Source: a virus (Duplodnaviria > Caudoviricetes). Taken from it: 31,268 bases of DNA. Location: positions 1 to 31,268 of the IMG/VR virus record IMGVR_UViG_3300037171_000022. One strand, written 5' to 3'. Below are positions 2,653 to 24,996 of this stretch, one piece after another; position 1 is the first letter of the stretch, and every line of letters starts with the position of its first letter. The translations under genes and the position numbers were made by a program. The notes below the pieces were generated by a model. It saw only the letters and a program-made list of their open reading frames with translations. It did no database searches and was not told the DNA's origin.

Positions 2653-2972
2653 TGATTACTCCTAAGTTACTAACCTCAGCACAGATCAAAGCTATGAATC
2701 GCTTTCTCAAGAATCGTATGATTGCTTGGGGTGATATAACTTTAAGTAACGAGGCTGCTAATAGATTGGCATTACTTTGTCAAATTGAACCGATAAATCT
2801 TTCTTATGTACTTAGCAGAGATTCAGAGGCGATATCTTGTAGAACAGCTTTGGGATGGTATGTGACATTTCATCGCTTTGAACAAGGAATAGAACAAACC
2901 AATTATTTCGCACTAGAATATGAAGCATGGAATGACGCTGCCAATCGTCTAAGAATGGTTGAGAATGACTGA
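2652..2972 (+). CDS. Hypothetical protein (106 aa)
   Basis: Overlaps both neighbours (TAATG; ATGACTGA); no recognisable motif. Confidence 0.65.
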   Translation: MITPKLLTSAQIKAMNRFLKNRMIAWGDITLSNEAANRLALLCQIEPINLSYVLSRDSEAISCRTALGWYVTFHRFEQGIEQTNYFALEYEAWNDAANRLRMVEND

Positions 2973-4470
2973 TCGAGTAACTAACACCTACGAACACGCT
3001 CTTCAGGCTGCCTACTATGACATAGGCAACCGTGGCATCTGCGTCAACACAGCACGAATCGCAGAGGCTAAAGCCATCGTCAAAGCTGAAGTGGCAAGAC
3101 AATTAGCAATAGCTTCTTCACAATGGCAAACAAAGGTTTTTGTCGGCGCGGCTAATGCTCCAGATGAAGCTGTCAAAGGTCTTAACGCTGGCAGCGCAAT
3201 CAATATCAATGCGACACAGGGTAAGTTTGCACTTTTGACAGGACTCAAAACTCTCGGCTACGAAGTTGTCAAGATCACAAAGAAAAACTCTGAGGGAGAT
3301 TATGAACAAAACTATTCAACCGGAGAACTCGCATTACAAAAGATGCTCTCAAAGAATCAGTTTGCGTATCCCGGAGGAGATCCGGCAATCAAAGCAATAC
3401 TTAAAATTAGAGAACTTGGTAAACTCTACTCCTCTTACCTTAACGCTAGACTTCTCTTTCGAGAAGGAGAAAGTTTCTTTCTTAGTAACTATAATGTCGC
3501 CGGAACGCTTACAGGTCGTAGATCGTCCAGAAGACATACGTTTGGTTTTGGAAACAATGCTCAAAATTTCCCCAAACATTCAGACGTGGCGTCGATGTAT
3601 AGACGATGTCTTGTCGCACGTCCCGGAAATATCTTCTTGATGGTCGATCAGATCAGTGCCGAAGATTGGCCTGTGAGTGCGTTGTCAGAGAATCACCAAG
3701 CACTCAAGGAGCTACGAGATGATACTGACGTTTACGGTCGGCACACTCGACTCGCATCTATCATATTTAACATTCCACTCAATGCAAAAACTCCCGGAGA
3801 GTGGAAAGATTCAATGGAACGGTATCTTGGCAAGAAAACTCGTCATGCCAGCAACTATGACATGAAAGCTGGTCGTATGAGTGATGCACTGGCGCAGGAA
3901 GGCTTTAGTTTTAGCGAGAGCGATTGTAGTACGCTTCTCAAGAAAGTCGCTGCTCATGATCCTTCTGTGCAGAAGATTTTTCATCAGTACGTCAAAGACA
4001 CAATTTCCAAAACACACATGCTAGTAACTCCCTTTGGGAGAGAACGTCAGTTCTTAGGAGCGAGACCAAATGACAGCAACTCAAGTGTCTTCAAAGAAGC
4101 TTATGCTTACATACCTCAATCAACTGTCGGTGACAATACCGGAATGGCAATCCTTGCTATGGAAACTAAGTATCCTGTCGGCGAAAGATTCGTGGTCCAA
4201 GAAGGACATGATAGCATTGTCCAGGATGTACCTTCAGATATCGAAACAGTTTACAGATATCTCCTACGAGTTGGAGAGAGTTTTAAGCGCAGCATTACCT
4301 TCCATAACGGAATTACTGTTGAAATCCCCATTGAAGCAGAAGTTGGGTATGACTTCCAGACAACAGTTAAGATCAAAGAAGTAACTCGTGCTGGAGTCGC
4401 GGCGGCGATCGAGAAGCTCAAGGACAAATTAGCGGCAATAGAACCGAAACAAGTTCTAATCACAGCATAA
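2965..4470 (+). CDS. polA: DNA polymerase family A, polymerase (thumb/palm/fingers) subunit
   Basis: GTLTGRRSS, NAQNFPK, motif A MVDQISAE, motif B RYLGKKTRHASNY, TPFGRER, PQST, motif C QEGHDSIV; no exonuclease domain. ATG 2965 preferred over TTG 2959. Confidence 0.93.
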   Translation: MTDRVTNTYEHALQAAYYDIGNRGICVNTARIAEAKAIVKAEVARQLAIASSQWQTKVFVGAANAPDEAVKGLNAGSAININATQGKFALLTGLKTLGYEVVKITKKNSEGDYEQNYSTGELALQKMLSKNQFAYPGGDPAIKAILKIRELGKLYSSYLNARLLFREGESFFLSNYNVAGTLTGRRSSRRHTFGFGNNAQNFPKHSDVASMYRRCLVARPGNIFLMVDQISAEDWPVSALSENHQALKELRDDTDVYGRHTRLASIIFNIPLNAKTPGEWKDSMERYLGKKTRHASNYDMKAGRMSDALAQEGFSFSESDCSTLLKKVAAHDPSVQKIFHQYVKDTISKTHMLVTPFGRERQFLGARPNDSNSSVFKEAYAYIPQSTVGDNTGMAILAMETKYPVGERFVVQEGHDSIVQDVPSDIETVYRYLLRVGESFKRSITFHNGITVEIPIEAEVGYDFQTTVKIKEVTRAGVAAAIEKLKDKLAAIEPKQVLITA

Positions 4471-4485: not shown

Positions 4486-5712
4486 ATGAGCAGGGTTCTA
4501 AAGAAGCCGTTCCATGAAAGTTTCATTGACTGTGTCAGTCCTCATACTGATATTCCTGATACGTTTATCATCTGGTCGGCGCTCTCTCTTGTTGGAGCGG
4601 CGCTCAAAAACAATGTATACTTTCAGATTGGTACGTACACACTGTATCCGAATATGTTCATAGTACTTGTTGGACCTCCTGGCGTTGGTAAAGGAGCTTC
4701 GATGAACATTTTAGAACAGATGATTATTGATACTAAACCAAATCAGGTAGTCAATACGCTGTCTGATCGTATTACAGCAGAACGTATCATCGAGCGTATC
4801 TCAGACGGCTGGAGTACAGCGCCGCAGCTAAAGAACATGCAACTTGTACTAGGTAAGAATGACCACAATTGCTTGCTCTTTAGTTCTGAGATTCGTGTCT
4901 TACTTGGAGCATCAGATTGGATGCTTGAGTTTCTCGAAGAAGCATGGAGCAAAACGACTTATGAATATCAAACTAAGAACAAAGGAAACGTGGCAATTGA
5001 CAATATGTGCTGCTCGCTACTAGCTGCTTCTGTTCCTGATTTCCTTCGCAATGTCAATCGAGAAGCTCATATGGTCATTACAGGGGGGTTTTCAAGCAGA
5101 TGCCTCTTTATCTACGCAGAAAATCCGTCTAAAGACTTACCATTCCCGGAGCCGCTTAAAAAGAACGTAAAGTCCAAAGCTCTCTATGATAATCTTGTTC
5201 TTGATCTCCAAGAAATAGGCACTCTTCGTGGAGAGTTTGTCATAGACACTGGCGCACGATTACGCTTTGAGACTTTCTTACGTCTCAATCGCGCTGCCTC
5301 GTCAAAGGATGACTCCGAGGCTGTAGCAAATTTTCGAGCTAGAATAAAAGCTCATATTCTGAAGTTAGCTATGATTTTTAGTGTCTCTCGTGATAATTCT
5401 CTTCACATCTCTGATATGGATATGGTCAATGCTATAGCAGAGATACAAAAAATTCTTGCAAGTTTGTCAAAGCTTTTCCGCGGCGCTGGAGAAGGAATGG
5501 ATGCCGCAGTAACGGCACGAGTACAGGATTTTATTGAGAAGTACGGCAGAGTCTCGAAGAAAGAGATTTTCAAAGCGTTACACAGACACTTAAACTCTCC
5601 CGAAACTCTCGATAGAATTCTTTACGTTCTTGAAGCCATAGGTTATTGTACTGTGGTGAACTCAAACAAAATGACGTTTTATCAACCTGTAGTGAGGAAG
5701 GTAGGTCCATGA
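4486..5712 (+). CDS. DUF3987-like P-loop ATPase (putative replicative helicase) with probable C-terminal winged helix
   Basis: LYPNMFIVLVGPPGVGKG Walker A, degenerate Walker B LLFSSE, GGFSSR arginine motif, HILKLAM helix; follows the polymerase. Confidence 0.7.
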   Translation: MSRVLKKPFHESFIDCVSPHTDIPDTFIIWSALSLVGAALKNNVYFQIGTYTLYPNMFIVLVGPPGVGKGASMNILEQMIIDTKPNQVVNTLSDRITAERIIERISDGWSTAPQLKNMQLVLGKNDHNCLLFSSEIRVLLGASDWMLEFLEEAWSKTTYEYQTKNKGNVAIDNMCCSLLAASVPDFLRNVNREAHMVITGGFSSRCLFIYAENPSKDLPFPEPLKKNVKSKALYDNLVLDLQEIGTLRGEFVIDTGARLRFETFLRLNRAASSKDDSEAVANFRARIKAHILKLAMIFSVSRDNSLHISDMDMVNAIAEIQKILASLSKLFRGAGEGMDAAVTARVQDFIEKYGRVSKKEIFKALHRHLNSPETLDRILYVLEAIGYCTVVNSNKMTFYQPVVRKVGP

Positions 5713-6449
5713 TGGCGATCTATAGCATACCAAAGTCAAATAAATCCGTGAACGTGGCACCAGAGGAGCCACAGAAACCAGATGCTCCGAATTTTTTGGC
5801 GCTAAGACGCCTTGAACTAGAAGCAGAAGACGCTGCCGATATAGCACTAAAGTCTGCCAGCGAAATCGTACTCGATGGTTCTAACAAGGTTACTATTCCA
5901 GGTTATGCTTATACATTCGAAGCTCTAGGTGAGCGGATACTCGTTAGTTTAGATATTCCACTCTCAGGCTATGAGTGTAAGACTTGTCTAGGCAGAAAGC
6001 GTATTAAGCGTCAGTGTGAGTGTGTAACGTGTGGAAGAGCAGGAAAAAAGTACACACTGGAACAAATAGAAGACATTCGTAAAACTCTTGGAGACTCTGT
6101 GGCAGATGCTCGTACTGAGATTATCTGTCCAGAGTGCGGTGGTGATCCTGACAGTGTTGCCACAGATGAAGTCTGTCCAGAGTGTAACGGCGTTGGCGGC
6201 AAAGTTTGGATTCCACGTTCAGCAAAAGAATTCCCTACCACCGGTGTCGTAGTCTCGATGGGTTCTGTAGCAAGAGAGAAAGCTGAATTTAAGATCGGTG
6301 ATCGTATTCTCTTTGGTTTCCAAGCAGGAACAATGATTCCAAACAAGGCTGGATTACCGTTTAAATACATGGACTATTACAACGGCGCGATTAAGATTGA
6401 AGGTGCCGAAGCTATGGCAGCCTTTGATTTTGTGTTGTCGGCAGTCTAA
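5709..6449 (+). CDS. GroES/Cpn10-like co-chaperonin with an inserted DnaJ-type zinc finger
   Basis: EALGERILV ... [23 protein letters not shown] ... [15 protein letters not shown] matches the GroES consensus, interrupted by four CxxC(x)G motifs. ATGA overlap with the upstream stop and GAGGAAGG SD. Confidence 0.8.
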
Positions 6450-6462
6450 GAAAGGAGGTGTC

Positions 6463-6624
6463 ATGCCACTTGAAGAAGGGAGTTCAAAAAAAGTAATCTC
6501 AGATAATATTAAAACTGAGATGCACGCTGGTAAACCACAAAAACAAGCTGTCGCTATTGCAATGAGTGAAGCTGGTAAAAGAAGACAGAAGAGAAAGAAG
6601 ACTCAGAAAAAGAAATACTCGTAG
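6463..6624 (+). CDS. Small basic phage protein (53 aa)
   Basis: Strong AAGGAGGT SD; [38 protein letters not shown] plus a K/R-rich tail, a pattern common in small phage proteins. Confidence 0.8.
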
Positions 6625-6627
6625 CAT

Positions 6628-6675
6628 AAGAAAGTCCCACTCTAGAGAACATTCTAGAGTGGGGACTTCTTGTTT
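6628..6675. terminator. Bidirectional intrinsic terminator between the convergent blocks
   Basis: GTCCCACTCTAGA-gaacat-TCTAGAGTGGGGAC stem (one bulge) with AAGAAA on the left and TTCTTGTTT on the right. Confidence 0.85.
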
Positions 6676-6762: not shown

Positions 6763-9609
6763 CTAGTCTGTGCATGTATACGCAAAAACCATAGCTGTGC
6801 TCGCCGGAGGAGCAGTGACCAATTGCGCGTTAAGAAGATCTGTGCTGCTAGATCCGCCCGAGAGCCACTGATAAATTCCTGTGCCGATGGAATTTCCCGT
6901 TATTGTGCAGTTAGCAAAGTTGGGCCGATTGGTTCCCCCATCTACAACATAGACCATTGCTGTTCCGGTGGAACCCGTAGGACTCGTTCCAGTCGTAAAC
7001 AGGACAGTCCCTCCAGATTGGTTACAAACATTACTCGATTGGCATACGGCAGTTGCCCCGGTTCCCGCGCCCGATTGCACTGCGAATGTTACAGATCCTG
7101 TGCCCGTCCAAATTGGGCCTTTCACAATGCCCGTAAAGGTCGGTGCGACGAGGGGCGCCCCTCCTAGATTCGCTAGCGCCGTAGCTGCCGTAGTTGCTCC
7201 TGTTCCACCATTAGCTATTCCTACTGTGCCAGTAACAGCCGGGGCCGTATATGCTCCTGCCCCATTCAGATAGGTGGTCGCGCTGCCGCCTGTTGTCAGA
7301 GTCACTCCGTTGGTTGTTCCTGCACGATTGCTGCTCGATGCAATCTCGTGCCACGCATTATCATAGGCGGAATAAGAAAGAGTCACAAATTCATTTGTCG
7401 GTATCGCCTCGCTCGTCGCGCCTCCCATCAGTTTGATGCCGTTCGGAGACGCTCCGCCTGTTTGAAGAACTGAAGGCCCATACTGAGCTGAGTAGATTTT
7501 TAGCAAGCGTCCATCGTACCCTCCTGTGATGGTGGTTATAGGCGTACCAGCCTGTACATCGTAAAGTCTAATGATGTCTCGATTGTTGGGTTGCAGCGGC
7601 AGGATACCTCCCGTTATGACATCTACAAATGTTGAAGTTTCTCCTGTCGGGGCCGTTGTGGAAACCGGGTTGTCGCCTTCGTTGCCGCTGGCGTCGATAA
7701 TCGTCACCTGCTGACTGAAGTTAGAGCCAATATGGATGTTGCTCTGATTACTCAGTGAGTTGATATAGATGTTCGGCGTTCGATTCCCGCTAATTTCTCC
7801 TGTGCTTTGACCCGCATCATCATAGATACTATAGATGGTTGTCGAGTCGTTGAAGATATTATCATTGACGTTAAAATTTGTGGCGTAAAGGCCGGTAGCT
7901 CGAATGTCGGCATTGGTAACTCCAGACGGACAATTTCCTTCAAAGTAGCCTAATTTGATGGTCACTGCCGCTTGATTCTGTAGATATATGCCAGCGCAGT
8001 TCGTTGCTATCCCTGCACCGTTGCCTTCAATGTCCATCTGGTCAAATTTAAGAGCCATAGACCCTCCGTAGGTCGAACCGGCAATCAAACCCACGCCGTA
8101 ATTGCCATTGTTATTAAACGAGTCTCGTTCCCAAGCACTGTCATGTATAGTGTTGGAAGTTCCGTTGCATGTGGCTGTGGTACCCGTGCAGCCCGTGGTG
8201 CTTGTGTTTGACAAAAAGCCATCATTGCTATCGGAGCTTTCATAAATATCCGTGTACTTACAAATGATGCACCGGCCCACCACATGTATGCCATTAACAA
8301 ATGATCCTTGAATGTTTATATTTTCTATGTCATCTCGATCCGCAATCCAATTCATATCAACTCGGCTTTGGAGTTCGATAGCGTCGTTCGTTCCCGTGCC
8401 AGGACTGTTGACGGTCAAGTCTTTGATTGCAAAATCATTGATAACTGTTGCCGCTTGCACGGTATCTGACTGTAGAGCATAAGGCGTGCTGCACGCAGGT
8501 TCCGTGATCGTAAACTGCGTTGCTGTGGCTGTCCGAATATAGTAGCCAACATAGCCTGTCGTGGCAAACAGCTTCATGCAAGAAGACGCAGGAGAAGTCA
8601 AGAATGGCCCGGTAAAGGCTATGAACTGCGTGCCTCCACCGATAAAGTTGTTATTAGACGTGAATGTTACCACGCCACCGGAGCCAACCGAGTATCCCGT
8701 CACATACGACAAGATTCTCCGGCCCAATGCGGGTTTTGTCGTGTCTAACGGCTCTACCGTCACGCAAGACTTGGCGGCGCCTTCAACCTCAACTCCTGTC
8801 GATGGTTGAAAGTTATCAAGATAAGTTCCACATGGAAGAAAGATCTCCCCGGTAGGATACCCATTAGTGACAAGCTGTGCGTAAGCGGCAGTGATTGTGC
8901 CGGTGCCTGGAACTGCCGCAACGACAGAATCTAGCGAAGTGATATGCTGATCTAACGGCAGGAAGGAAGAGACGCCGCCTAGGTTAGCAAGTGCCACGGG
9001 TGCTGTAGTTGCGCCCGTGCCGCCGTTCGCAATTGTGATTGGTGTAGTAAGCGTATTTCCTGTAACACAACCCCATGCACTACCGCTATAACCTCTATAA
9101 CAAGAATCGGTGACATTGTAATAGATGTTACCTGGTACAAGTTGTAGAATTGCCTCTACGTCAGCATAACCGTAGTTTCCTATGACAGCAGAGAAGCGCG
9201 GTACTGGAATAGTGGCCGTGACTTGTGAGGATATATTCATACTTGGACCCGAAGCAGGAAGAACTAATATCCCACATTTAGAAGTAGAGAAGGGACATAT
9301 AGTATATTGCCAAGAACTTCCAGCTGGAGTTACTTGGGTATTATCGTAGACTGAAACAGAAAAAGTTCCTTCTGAGCCTAGAGAAATTGGTCTTTGATTT
9401 ACAACAGCCATTGATAATGGCGCACCGTTTAACCTATAAACGCTAAGATTTGGCTGCGCTGGGTTAGGAACAAACTGTACTGTAACAGTCCCGTCGAACC
9501 ATGTTATGTTGTCTGAGTCGGTTACTGTGGCAGTTACCGTAGTAGTCTGTGCAAAAGAAATGCCACTCACAAAGAGTAGCATTCCAAGGAAAGCAAGATA
9601 CTTCTTCAT
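6763..9609 (-). CDS. Tailspike/tail-fibre-like protein with a pectin-lyase-like beta-helix and an N-terminal Sec signal peptide
   Basis: MKKYLAFLGMLLFVSGISFA|Q; two IANGGTGATTA..ALANLGG fibre motifs; GEIFLPCGTY...VEGA beta-helix entry followed by N/D/G/I-rich rungs. Confidence 0.7.
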   Translation of the reverse strand: MKKYLAFLGMLLFVSGISFAQTTTVTATVTDSDNITWFDGTVTVQFVPNPAQPNLSVYRLNGAPLSMAVVNQRPISLGSEGTFSVSVYDNTQVTPAGSSWQYTICPFSTSKCGILVLPASGPSMNISSQVTATIPVPRFSAVIGNYGYADVEAILQLVPGNIYYNVTDSCYRGYSGSAWGCVTGNTLTTPITIANGGTGATTAPVALANLGGVSSFLPLDQHITSLDSVVAAVPGTGTITAAYAQLVTNGYPTGEIFLPCGTYLDNFQPSTGVEVEGAAKSCVTVEPLDTTKPALGRRILSYVTGYSVGSGGVVTFTSNNNFIGGGTQFIAFTGPFLTSPASSCMKLFATTGYVGYYIRTATATQFTITEPACSTPYALQSDTVQAATVINDFAIKDLTVNSPGTGTNDAIELQSRVDMNWIADRDDIENINIQGSFVNGIHVVGRCIICKYTDIYESSDSNDGFLSNTSTTGCTGTTATCNGTSNTIHDSAWERDSFNNNGNYGVGLIAGSTYGGSMALKFDQMDIEGNGAGIATNCAGIYLQNQAAVTIKLGYFEGNCPSGVTNADIRATGLYATNFNVNDNIFNDSTTIYSIYDDAGQSTGEISGNRTPNIYINSLSNQSNIHIGSNFSQQVTIIDASGNEGDNPVSTTAPTGETSTFVDVITGGILPLQPNNRDIIRLYDVQAGTPITTITGGYDGRLLKIYSAQYGPSVLQTGGASPNGIKLMGGATSEAIPTNEFVTLSYSAYDNAWHEIASSSNRAGTTNGVTLTTGGSATTYLNGAGAYTAPAVTGTVGIANGGTGATTAATALANLGGAPLVAPTFTGIVKGPIWTGTGSVTFAVQSGAGTGATAVCQSSNVCNQSGGTVLFTTGTSPTGSTGTAMVYVVDGGTNRPNFANCTITGNSIGTGIYQWLSGGSSSTDLLNAQLVTAPPASTAMVFAYTCTD
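7155..7230 (-). repeat. Second copy of the IANGGTGATTAxxALANLGG motif
   Basis: TVGIANGGTGATTAATALANLGGA; synonymously diverged from the first copy. Confidence 0.8.
8972..9045 (-). repeat. First copy of the IANGGTGATTAxxALANLGG motif
   Basis: PITIANGGTGATTAPVALANLGGV. Confidence 0.8.
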
Positions 9610-9617
9610 ACTTCCTC

Positions 9618-10928
9618 CTAGAGCCAGCCATTAGTCTCAAGAAACTGATAACGCTTGAGAGTTGATTTGTTGATATCGGTACGATACTGCATGTTTGGAA
9701 TGTTGATTTTATTGAGCGCTTTATCACACTCAGCTGCGGCTTCCTCAATAGAATCGCCAATGCCAATAGGTGCACAAACGTAACCATAGTTACCACTGGT
9801 AACGAGAGACTTCTTATCTTTAGCGAGCTTCACGTCGTACATATACGTGTGTGTAAGTTGCTCAAGATCCTCTGGATCAAGTCCCTCAATAGGAACATCC
9901 TTGGCTTTAGAAACTCGAATCTCAGTAGGATACGGCGGTATCGAAAGCGTTACCGACATTCCAAACGGCGCCCGCCATTTAATCTGAGGTATCTGAAATG
10001 AGGCCACACGTTGCAGCATCTCGCCAAAACCTGAACCATACATAGTGGCGATAGTAGTATCGGCGAGGTAGCCGAATCGCGGCGTCCACTCTAGGCCATA
10101 AGCTGTATCCATTGTCACAATGGTATTAAGATCAATCATTCCAGTGAAACAATTTGCACGCAGAAAAGGTATAATTTTCTTTAAGCCCTCACGATAGAGC
10201 TTAGATTCTTCTGAGATAGCGAAGACCAAATTACCAGAACATCCTGTATTCGGTCCCTTACCTTCATTCATGAACTTTTTTTCTTCGAGTGTACAAGTAA
10301 GCATATAGAAATCCGCGCCATTGAAATACCCCATCACCGAGGCTTCCGTACCCTTGACGAACTCTTGTAGAATGAATGGCTGATTCTTCGATAGCGCGTA
10401 TAATCTGTCGATGACTTTGAGCATGTCCAGTGCATCCTTAGCAACATACGTCAGCGCCTTATCATCGTTTCCACCTGGACCCTCGTAGGGTTTGTAGACA
10501 TAGCGTTTCCCTTCTTTTTTTATGTGCGCCTTCCCTTCTGAGGCTGTAGCAAACTCCTGATACGGTGGCACCACAATCTTCGCTTGTTCCATTGCTTCCA
10601 AACCGAATTTCCTATCATCCTCCAAGGCTTCTTCAAAACTGCCATCTCCTAGTGTGGGCGCCTCCATTCTTGAAGCATCCGCTTGCTTTGGTTTGCCGGT
10701 GAGATCAAACAAGGACAAATTATACCCTTTATACGATGGGTATCCATATCCTTGCACCGTGCGTCTATGATCCAGCGATAGCTTCTTGGGGGGTGGAATT
10801 AACCCCCCAAGAACATCCTCATAATACTCTGGCTTAGACAAAAAGTAGTCTACATCATGACCTTCCGCAAGGAGGCGTAAGATAAACCACGCGCCCATGC
10901 CAGAAAAAGAGGACATTGCTATCTTCAT
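9618..10928 (-). CDS. PurD (GAR synthetase)-like ATP-grasp ligase, divergent
   Basis: ALEDDRKFG..AM; YVYKP; ILQEFVKGTEAS; GKGPNTG; LEWTPRFG; C-terminal GIGDSIEEA...YRTDI, all colinear with PurD. Confidence 0.8.
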   Translation of the reverse strand: MKIAMSSFSGMGAWFILRLLAEGHDVDYFLSKPEYYEDVLGGLIPPPKKLSLDHRRTVQGYGYPSYKGYNLSLFDLTGKPKQADASRMEAPTLGDGSFEEALEDDRKFGLEAMEQAKIVVPPYQEFATASEGKAHIKKEGKRYVYKPYEGPGGNDDKALTYVAKDALDMLKVIDRLYALSKNQPFILQEFVKGTEASVMGYFNGADFYMLTCTLEEKKFMNEGKGPNTGCSGNLVFAISEESKLYREGLKKIIPFLRANCFTGMIDLNTIVTMDTAYGLEWTPRFGYLADTTIATMYGSGFGEMLQRVASFQIPQIKWRAPFGMSVTLSIPPYPTEIRVSKAKDVPIEGLDPEDLEQLTHTYMYDVKLAKDKKSLVTSGNYGYVCAPIGIGDSIEEAAAECDKALNKINIPNMQYRTDINKSTLKRYQFLETNGWL

Positions 10929-24036: not shown

Positions 24037-24996
24037 TTACGGCCCTTGAGTCCCCCATACCCCTTGCCAACGAGGACACCAGGCGGCCACTCTCATACGA
24101 GTCTTCTGCTTGATAGCATCAGTGTCGAAGTCATCATCAAACTCCGTTGTAGGAGCTTCACGATTGACCACTTGCAAGGCATGATCTGCTTTTTCTGCAA
24201 CCAAGAACCAAGCAGACGGCGAGTTAAGCCAAGGAACTTCAAGATTCTTGTAATCCTCAGGCAACAGAGAATTGATCGTATTATCTCCTGTATAGGGCTT
24301 ACCCGGAGAACCAAGAATCTCTCGAACCAAGAACCGAAGTTCAGGAGGAGTAATGAGATTCGCCCATTTGAGCCGAATCGGGAAGCCCATGTTATCTACC
24401 ATGCGGGAAGCGTGGTTAGTAGCAAGTTGAAGACCTGCTACTGAAAAATCCACATCTACAGAAGGTCGGTTAGGATAAGTTCCCGGCGCAGAAATAACGC
24501 CAGCCAATCCTGGACCAATCGCTGTAGCCTGTGCGCCACCGAGCAGAGCATGAGCATTGTAGAAAAGAGGATTACCGTCGAATGTAGTAACCGAAGATGT
24601 AAATCCTTGATTGAGCACATTCCATGAAATCATCTCTTTGGTAAATGCCGCAGACCGTGCCAGCAACGTCGGACCCTTTTTCCCGACAAGGCCATACTTG
24701 TCATCGTCATACAGTTCCTTGGAAGTCCTAATACCAAGAGAGTACGTCAGAGGCTCGACTCTCTTAGAAGCTCCCTGCTTCATCTCTGTATAAGTAGTAG
24801 AAGCATTTTCAGGCTTTTCAAGTAGCACAGAGATGCCTGCCATCTCAAGCTCTTGTTCATACTCAGAGTCAGAATCTACCTCATGAAACACCTTAGGATA
24901 GTCTGACGATTTCAACTGATTGTCAAGGCAATCGAAGTAAATCTTCTTAAGCCCCGGCTGCATCAGCTGTGCGAATTTTGCTCTAACTTGAGGCAT
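24037..24996 (-). CDS. Major capsid protein (HK97 fold, Mu gpT-like)
   Basis: 319 aa; LMQPGL, EKPE, YSLGIRTSKELYDDD, LITPPEL, PWLNSPSAWFL, DFDTD; position after the scaffold. Confidence 0.85.
   Translation of the reverse strand: MPQVRAKFAQLMQPGLKKIYFDCLDNQLKSSDYPKVFHEVDSDSEYEQELEMAGISVLLEKPENASTTYTEMKQGASKRVEPLTYSLGIRTSKELYDDDKYGLVGKKGPTLLARSAAFTKEMISWNVLNQGFTSSVTTFDGNPLFYNAHALLGGAQATAIGPGLAGVISAPGTYPNRPSVDVDFSVAGLQLATNHASRMVDNMGFPIRLKWANLITPPELRFLVREILGSPGKPYTGDNTINSLLPEDYKNLEVPWLNSPSAWFLVAEKADHALQVVNREAPTTEFDDDFDTDAIKQKTRMRVAAWCPRWQGVWGTQGP

Follow-up and report, generated by a model that had tools for sequence, protein, structure and literature searches.

The mobile loop of GroES is, in textbook terms, a short, disordered docking element; how fast the GroEL cycle runs is generally ascribed to its flexibility, and pre-folding of the loop hairpin has been linked to GroEL affinity. 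As described in the loop-related passages of one report, the loop of free GroES is mobile or disordered, and residues I25-V26-L27 contact GroEL helices H and I (PMC5653362). Passages on loop engineering state that Cpn10 can remain a heptamer with foreign peptides in the loop, and also that some engineered inserts disturbed heptamer formation in simulations (PMC5118791). The limit of the GroEL cage is given as ~60 kDa in the relevant section of PMC3814418. Among phage-encoded versions, the loop of T4 gp31 is longer, with 22 residues and no metal sites, and its roof is missing; gp31 serves the 56-kDa capsid protein gp23 (PMC6318259, sections on gp31). The plain GroES proteins of marine phages, as treated in sections of Marine et al. 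2017 (PMC5649160), come from phages with GroES only, often have the roof deleted and are encoded near head genes. Here we describe a phage GroES-like protein in which a cysteine-rich finger takes the place of the loop turn.

The window analysed is the whole of a 31,268-base virus record from a tailed phage (IMGVR_UViG_3300037171_000022). Its + strand carries genes for SSB, a split DNA polymerase and a primase/helicase, and its - strand those for terminase, portal, major capsid protein (MCP) and tail proteins. The GroES-like gene is the last long gene of the + strand replication module (Table 1), and its ORF is annotated in PHROGs as co-chaperonin GroES. Terminator-like hairpins number 3 in the window against 2.2 expected from shuffles. 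The query had no match among cultured or GenBank phages, and neither did a four-motif relative. In two of four runs of RNA libraries with a peat metagenome label, contigs agree with stretches of 180-267 bases of the gene at 99-100%; such contigs carry no strand, may stem from DNA and come without a silent control.

Table 1. Features of the GroES-like gene and its surroundings in the window (nucleotide positions of the window; residue numbers of the 246-residue protein)
Feature	Position	Strand	Remarks
GroES-like gene with predicted zinc finger	5709..6449	+	246 aa; ATG overlaps the stop of the primase/helicase gene (ATGA, 5709-5712)
Primase/helicase-like gene	4486..5712	+	next gene upstream where the gene order is that of the window
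Hairpin of 13 pairs, terminator-like in either direction	6635..6664		separates the replication module from the virion module, which is convergent to it; consensus match only
MCP gene	24037..24996	-	319 aa, 35.4 kDa; family co-occurring with the GroES-like gene
N-terminal extension, residues 1-68	5709..5912	+	variable tail, predicted helix 29-49, clade-conserved segment 52-68
GroES strand 1, residues 70-82	5916..5954	+	invariant D82 at its end
Descending mobile-loop strand, residues 83-89	5955..5975	+	family motif ending G-Y-E
Cysteine-rich insert, residues 90-161	5976..6191	+
Predicted helical hairpin at finger tip, residues ~116-136	6054..6116	+	between the inner ligands; specific to the window's clade
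Ascending loop strand, G163-G164-K-V166-W167-I168-P169	6195..6215	+	triad equivalent to E. coli GroES I25-V26-L27
Rest of GroES barrel	6216..6404	+	includes shortened roof, residues 186-196 (6264-6296)
C-terminal extension	6405..6446	+	clade-invariant F239-D240-F241

Several neighbouring genes deserve mention in their own right. Between the GroES-like gene and the terminator-like hairpin lies a 53-aa ORF (6463-6624, +) that is preceded by a GGAGG ribosome-binding site and whose product has a basic tail at the C-terminus; Pfam and NCBIfam gave no match for it. DNA polymerase A is apparently split between ORFs 946-2034 and 2959-4470 (+), both present in 25/34 regions compared; the upstream one combines a uracil-DNA-glycosylase-like domain (PF03167, above cut-off) with a region matching a polymerase PHROG, and the separate polymerase ORF follows downstream. 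Near the end of the virion module, a PurD-like ATP-grasp protein (9618-10928, -) matches Pfam GARS_A and GARS_C above cut-off and TIGR00877 at E 1.9e-24, below the cut-off of that model; it directly precedes a tail-fibre-like gene in 17 of 34 regions compared and perhaps acts in modifying a virion protein, not in purine synthesis. The tail-fibre-like protein itself (948 aa, 6763-9609, -) starts with an apparent signal peptide and has no match in Pfam or PHROGs.

A preliminary description of this DNA, made by eye, had assigned the protein to Cpn10, and both profile and fold comparisons now bear this out. Pfam Cpn10 (PF00166) matches residues 164-211 at E 9.7e-7, scoring 29.2 bits where the cut-off is 21.1; every NCBIfam GroES cut-off lies far above the query. 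An AlphaFold monomer model built from 118 sequences (pLDDT 78.8, pTM 0.54) ranks Cpn10 first in Foldseek, and VIA re-alignment gives a co-chaperonin in each of the 16 best rows, which cover the model from strand 1 to the last strand (residues ~66-232), on both sides of the insert. Matches include 1p3h (Z 9.8, rmsd 4.3, 86 aligned), 1wnr (Z 9.6, rmsd 2.0, 77 aligned) and T4 gp31 itself (1g31; Z 9.3, rmsd 4.3, 95 aligned). The hinges to the finger (residues 84-87 and 161-180) are of low confidence, so the orientation of the finger is not fixed by the model. Membership of the MDR family, whose alcohol dehydrogenases contain a GroES-like domain, was rejected: the protein has only 246 residues, MDR rows reach Z of at most 7.0, below the Cpn10 rows, and the sequence matches are to Cpn10. 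A DnaJ/Hsp40 protein was likewise rejected, as Pfam gave no J-domain match at E ≤ 10.

In alignment with cellular GroES, the insert falls between strand 1 and the G-G-x-h-h-h-P segment, that is, within the mobile loop, where the preliminary description had put it; the phage segment G163-G164-K-V-W-I-P169 pairs with the cellular G-G-I-V-I-P with one extra residue. Two further features noted there also hold: the ~65-residue N-terminal extension corresponds to residues 1-68, ahead of strand 1, and the roof is short, with 11 residues (family median 8, 105 parsed) against 17 in 7/7 cellular GroES. A full roof hairpin is also lacking in gp31 and in many viral GroES, so it is not obligatory for phage members. 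Elsewhere in the family the roof position has been altered in other ways: four proteins (P0172, P0244, P0258, P0267) have an extra CxxC pair there, amounting to a second cysteine-rich insert on the opposite face, and in five others (P0136, P0141, P0145, P0147, the last from L055, and L046) the roof hairpin is swapped for a long, probably helical insert of roughly 40-55 residues. Set beside bacterial GroES/Cpn10 (PF00166; 1p3h, 1wnr, 1aon), the phage protein thus shares the barrel fold, the strand order, the hydrophobic triad that precedes the proline of the loop, and two motifs, P-x-x-G-x-V-V-x-x-G and G-D-x-I-L-F; it differs in the 72-residue cysteine-rich insert in place of the loop turn, in the roof and in both terminal extensions, and its gene lies outside any groES-groEL operon.

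Four CxxC motifs, starting at nt 5976, 6021, 6126 and 6174, had been read as the layout of the DnaJ cysteine-rich domain. The positions stand; the second motif requires revision, for it is C-x-C (C103, C105) in 105/105 two-site relatives rather than CVTC, C108 being found in 11/118 only. Four cysteines of a predicted outer zinc site (C90, C93, C156, C159) are present in 118/118 clade members, and those of a predicted inner site (C103, C105, C140, C143) in 105/105 two-site forms. In 13/118 relatives exactly the inner four cysteines are absent and the outer four kept; this natural loss of the inner pair implies a putative nested pairing of motifs 1 with 4 and 2 with 3, as in DnaJ. The canonical four-CxxC arrangement is the family norm and the window protein is a derived variant of it, since four CxxC motifs occur in 104 of 150 distant representatives.

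Likeness to the DnaJ domain (PF00684) and its relatives BSD2, ZnJ2 and anti-TRAP consists in that norm, in the proposed nested pairing and in weak profile matches. Both Cpn10 and DnaJ-type Pfam matches had been anticipated for the query: the first was found, and for PF00684 there was no match at E ≤ 10. Across the broad family, PF00684 is reached at E ≤ 1e-4 by 19/114 members (best 4e-7) and PF00166 by 97/114. With the broad family profile, matches were obtained to 1exk, the cysteine-rich domain of E. coli DnaJ, at E 1.4e-6 and to BSD2 at E 8.4e-6, cysteine-rich matches being prone to bias, and to Cpn10 chains at E down to 3e-21. Modelled alone (pLDDT 69.8), the insert gave nothing at E ≤ 0.001 in Foldseek (best BSD2, E 0.42), and a wide VIA search gave at best Z 2.7 to DnaJA2 (rmsd 3.4, 46 aligned), below significance; the query finger is accordingly without a significant Pfam or fold match. 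The phage protein also departs from DnaJ and its J-less relatives in having no J-domain or C-terminal client domain, a C-x-C second motif and an added helical hairpin.

Homologues with the same insert, whose existence the preliminary description had left as a check, are plentiful. A word search gave 159 homologues, and a profile search of representatives at 50% identity gave 384 at E ≤ 0.001. Among the best 150 of these 384, 133 combine strand 1 and the GroES C-half with a cysteine insert, the remainder being 13 fragments and 4 plain tandem GroES; the 133 divide, by HMM-anchored counts (a regex parse missed 34/150 representatives), into 104 with four CxxC, 14 with two, 9 of C-x-C type and 6 others. 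Such numbers, together with dN/dS of 0.10-0.17 for the whole gene against four close relatives, mean that the ORF is not a chance reading, and an artefact was rejected on the same grounds. The nearest clusters in the ESM Atlas are virus-only (searching the Atlas with the insert alone gave no usable feature match), and a scan of 185,579 prokaryote genomes with patterns of the window's clade returned two loci, both in phage context.

The family also includes members without a finger. One complete genome (G046; gene at L261:1318-1725) carries a fingerless relative in the same slot after primase, and seven more fingerless proteins are known (in the set P0302-P0309); they provide a natural control. 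In the fingerless relatives a short turn joins the two loop strands directly, so the finger replaces only the hairpin turn. On a 38-genome capsid tree, read by eye, one-site forms turn up in at least four separate positions. With five distant outgroups, the capsid tree places the fingerless G046 among finger-bearing phages (81/96, not starred); a GroES-core tree places fingerless forms beside cellular GroES (82/88, not starred; 36/37 pairs, with G015 left out because it did not parse).

Constraint is uneven along the protein. Against the same four relatives, dN/dS is 0 for residues 69-89 (strand 1 and loop stem, with no non-synonymous change in 4/4), 0.02-0.12 for the C-half and 0.16-0.35 for the finger; judged by these ratios, the finger is under selection, but more loosely than the remainder. 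Beyond the cysteines and a few glycines the finger is poorly conserved, its non-cysteine columns having a mean top-residue share of 0.22 family-wide and 0.46 in the clade. The docking triad is better kept: positions 166 and 168 are hydrophobic in 118/118 clade members, the three positions before the proline are 100/83/83% hydrophobic (116 parsable of 150 representatives), and the triad is conserved among members only 20-35% identical.

The gene is near-universal in a large uncultured group of ~48-kb phages without a GroEL of their own. All 15 genomes at least 90% complete that were found via the GroES-like gene (31 records from 33 loci) share one MCP family; this set includes one apparently chimeric record (G003). 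In a reverse sample, 160 loci found by MCP yielded 31 long records (>21 kb) once records already found via the GroES-like gene were removed: 21/31 match the GroES-like family, and the gene is present in all 11 near-complete genomes, with the finger in 10 of them and fingerless in 1. GroEL (PF00118) was found in 0/15 gene-picked and 0/11 MCP-picked genomes at least 90% complete (0/26 in all). Together with the retained docking triad, this makes host GroEL the most likely partner, in agreement with the preliminary description. The gene is retained in two orders, following the primase in one and lying a short way ahead of terminase and portal in the other. Distances computed for the GroES core are correlated with those for the MCP (Spearman 0.70, 36 genomes, 0/2000 permutations), which shows vertical inheritance, not co-adaptation. 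The cultured marine phages CRP-901 and HTVC023P have MCPs of ~26% identity and a plain GroES, without the cysteine insert, four genes before the MCP.

For the host there is a single, tentative lead to Gammaproteobacteria. One relative (L057) lies in a ~48-kb island of low GC (0.45 against ~0.62) inside a 638-kb contig labelled as uncultured Gammaproteobacteria; the genome concerned carries its own groES-groEL, and the MCP of this prophage groups with that of the window (97/95). The prophage (L057, L274-L277; G063 contig C2, ~176-225 kb) is apparently full-length, with several genes that look split into two ORFs through decay or sequencing errors. When the one-site L057 protein (residues 8-163, 82 alignment rows) was modelled with the GroEL apical domain of the same genome (23 rows), the complex scored 0.28 against a mark of 0.32, a value that speaks neither for nor against binding. 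A second long record (G003, L265-L267; 99.6 kb) seems to join a ~48-kb phage of this group to lower-GC, different phage DNA and is probably a chimeric assembly; the idea that its flanks are host DNA was rejected, since they look like another phage.

The reading that we consider somewhat probable is that of a gp31-like lid with a GroES fold, capping host GroEL to fold phage proteins. Like gp31 and RB49 CocO, the protein is phage-encoded without a GroEL, with a lengthened mobile loop and a reduced roof; its loop region of ~90 residues is far longer than that of gp31, and its sequence motifs are closer to ordinary GroES. The lid would assemble into a heptameric ring, with V166-W167-I168 docking between GroEL helices H and I, and the finger would bind zinc and point away from the cage. 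The outer site would tie together the two loop strands, pre-folding a hairpin that is disordered in free host GroES; because the free loop is disordered until bound, tying its ends should favour binding, and the pre-folded hairpin may raise affinity or slow release, such that the phage lid would prevail over the GroES of the host. The role of a variable accessory would then fall to the inner site and helical tip, and a wider opening would result from the short roof. The clients are probably virion proteins. The rationale of gp31, with the MCP as a client in need of a larger cage, is doubtful here, since at 35.4 kDa the MCP is well below the cage limit; the portal (73 kDa), the terminase or the polymerase (56 kDa) are possible clients instead.

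Some points weigh against such a lid. An insert of ~70 residues, if rigid, could clash with neighbouring loops or GroEL; the window-type gene order puts the gene at the end of the replication module, outside the head module; and the co-occurrence with the MCP may reflect only shared ancestry. In addition, 28/118 clade members have a polar residue (H or E) in the middle of the triad; a polar residue at this position is given for 23% of viral GroES in the relevant passage of Marine et al. 2017 (PMC5649160).

A different role for the finger, the capture of phage clients for delivery to GroEL, was proposed in the preliminary description. In a fuller form of this idea the lid is functional, and its seven fingers, as a holdase or thiol-disulfide helper, seize phage proteins that are unfolded or only partly assembled and pass them to GroEL. 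The family profile matches to 1exk and BSD2 given above point in this direction, as do purifying selection on the finger and the retention of G112, Y115, G128 and R135 in the helical tip of the clade. So does precedent: the DnaJ finger is described as helping polypeptide binding and thiol reduction (PMC4428491), and J-less finger proteins act as holdases, ZnJ2 among them, although the ZnJ2 report has this activity independent of the cysteines (PMC5818400). Yet the finger is 16% hydrophobic against 34% downstream, with poorly conserved non-cysteine columns; its length ranges from 31 to 124 residues; its inner half is repeatedly missing; and one complete genome does without it. We therefore regard client capture as unlikely. 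The finger is likely to clamp the docking hairpin structurally instead of trapping clients, because its surface shows poor conservation, few hydrophobic residues and repeated trimming, and because the outer site is kept in all finger-bearing forms and sits directly on both loop strands. A combination of both roles, in which DnaJ-type fingers on a seven-armed lid would lock the ring on host GroEL and also collect unfolded virion proteins outside the cage, would be a hybrid chaperone without cellular counterpart; this too we hold to be a minority prospect.

The same tight, clamped-loop binding could serve to hijack or inhibit GroEL, with a cage that leaks or stalls, so that host clients would be starved or a defence protein that depends on GroEL would be blocked. 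In keeping with this, the triad is kept while the roof is cut, the gene closes the replication module, a position that suggests that it is expressed ahead of the virion genes, and T4 39.2 is a reported precedent for a phage modulator of GroEL. Inhibition is nonetheless improbable: conservation extends over the entire barrel and the two terminal strands, as it does in working lids, the roofless gp31 is a functional lid according to the gp31 sections of PMC6318259, and the second gene order has the gene just before terminase and portal. A GroEL-independent ring scaffold, on which the seven fingers are presented to some component of the phage (terminase, portal, capsid shell or DNA), would account for the large clade-conserved extensions absent from GroES, the heavily rebuilt loop and, in one gene order, the adjoining packaging genes, but is quite improbable given a GroEL-binding triad conserved across such divergent members, a finger net charge near zero (median +1, 87 parsed), unlike that of a nucleic-acid binder, and the existence of fingerless members.

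The architecture is real, widespread and apparently undescribed in print. A search of open-access PMC and bioRxiv, with subscription papers, bioRxiv supplements and figure images outside its coverage, found no description of a GroES with a zinc-finger mobile loop. In Marine et al. 2017 (PMC5649160) the words "zinc", "cysteine" and "insertion" are absent from the main text, and these and "DnaJ" from the text of the supplement; the available text of the soil-virus chaperonin paper and of the CRP-901 paper makes no mention of the architecture, and a term search in the text of a polyvalent-protein survey gave 0 matches.

The family bears on how phages take over host folding, and the gene marks a large uncultured group of ~48-kb phages. 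With a folded, putatively metal-binding domain of 30-120 residues in the loop and natural forms of no, one and two sites, it offers a ready-made test of how loop rigidity and bulk affect GroEL binding and release. It also shows where GroES tolerates a whole inserted domain, which should be useful in engineering heptameric display scaffolds. Should the hybrid chaperone prove true, one small gene would re-programme the host chaperonin into a phage-specific assembly line, with the zero-, one- and two-site versions tuning the effect.
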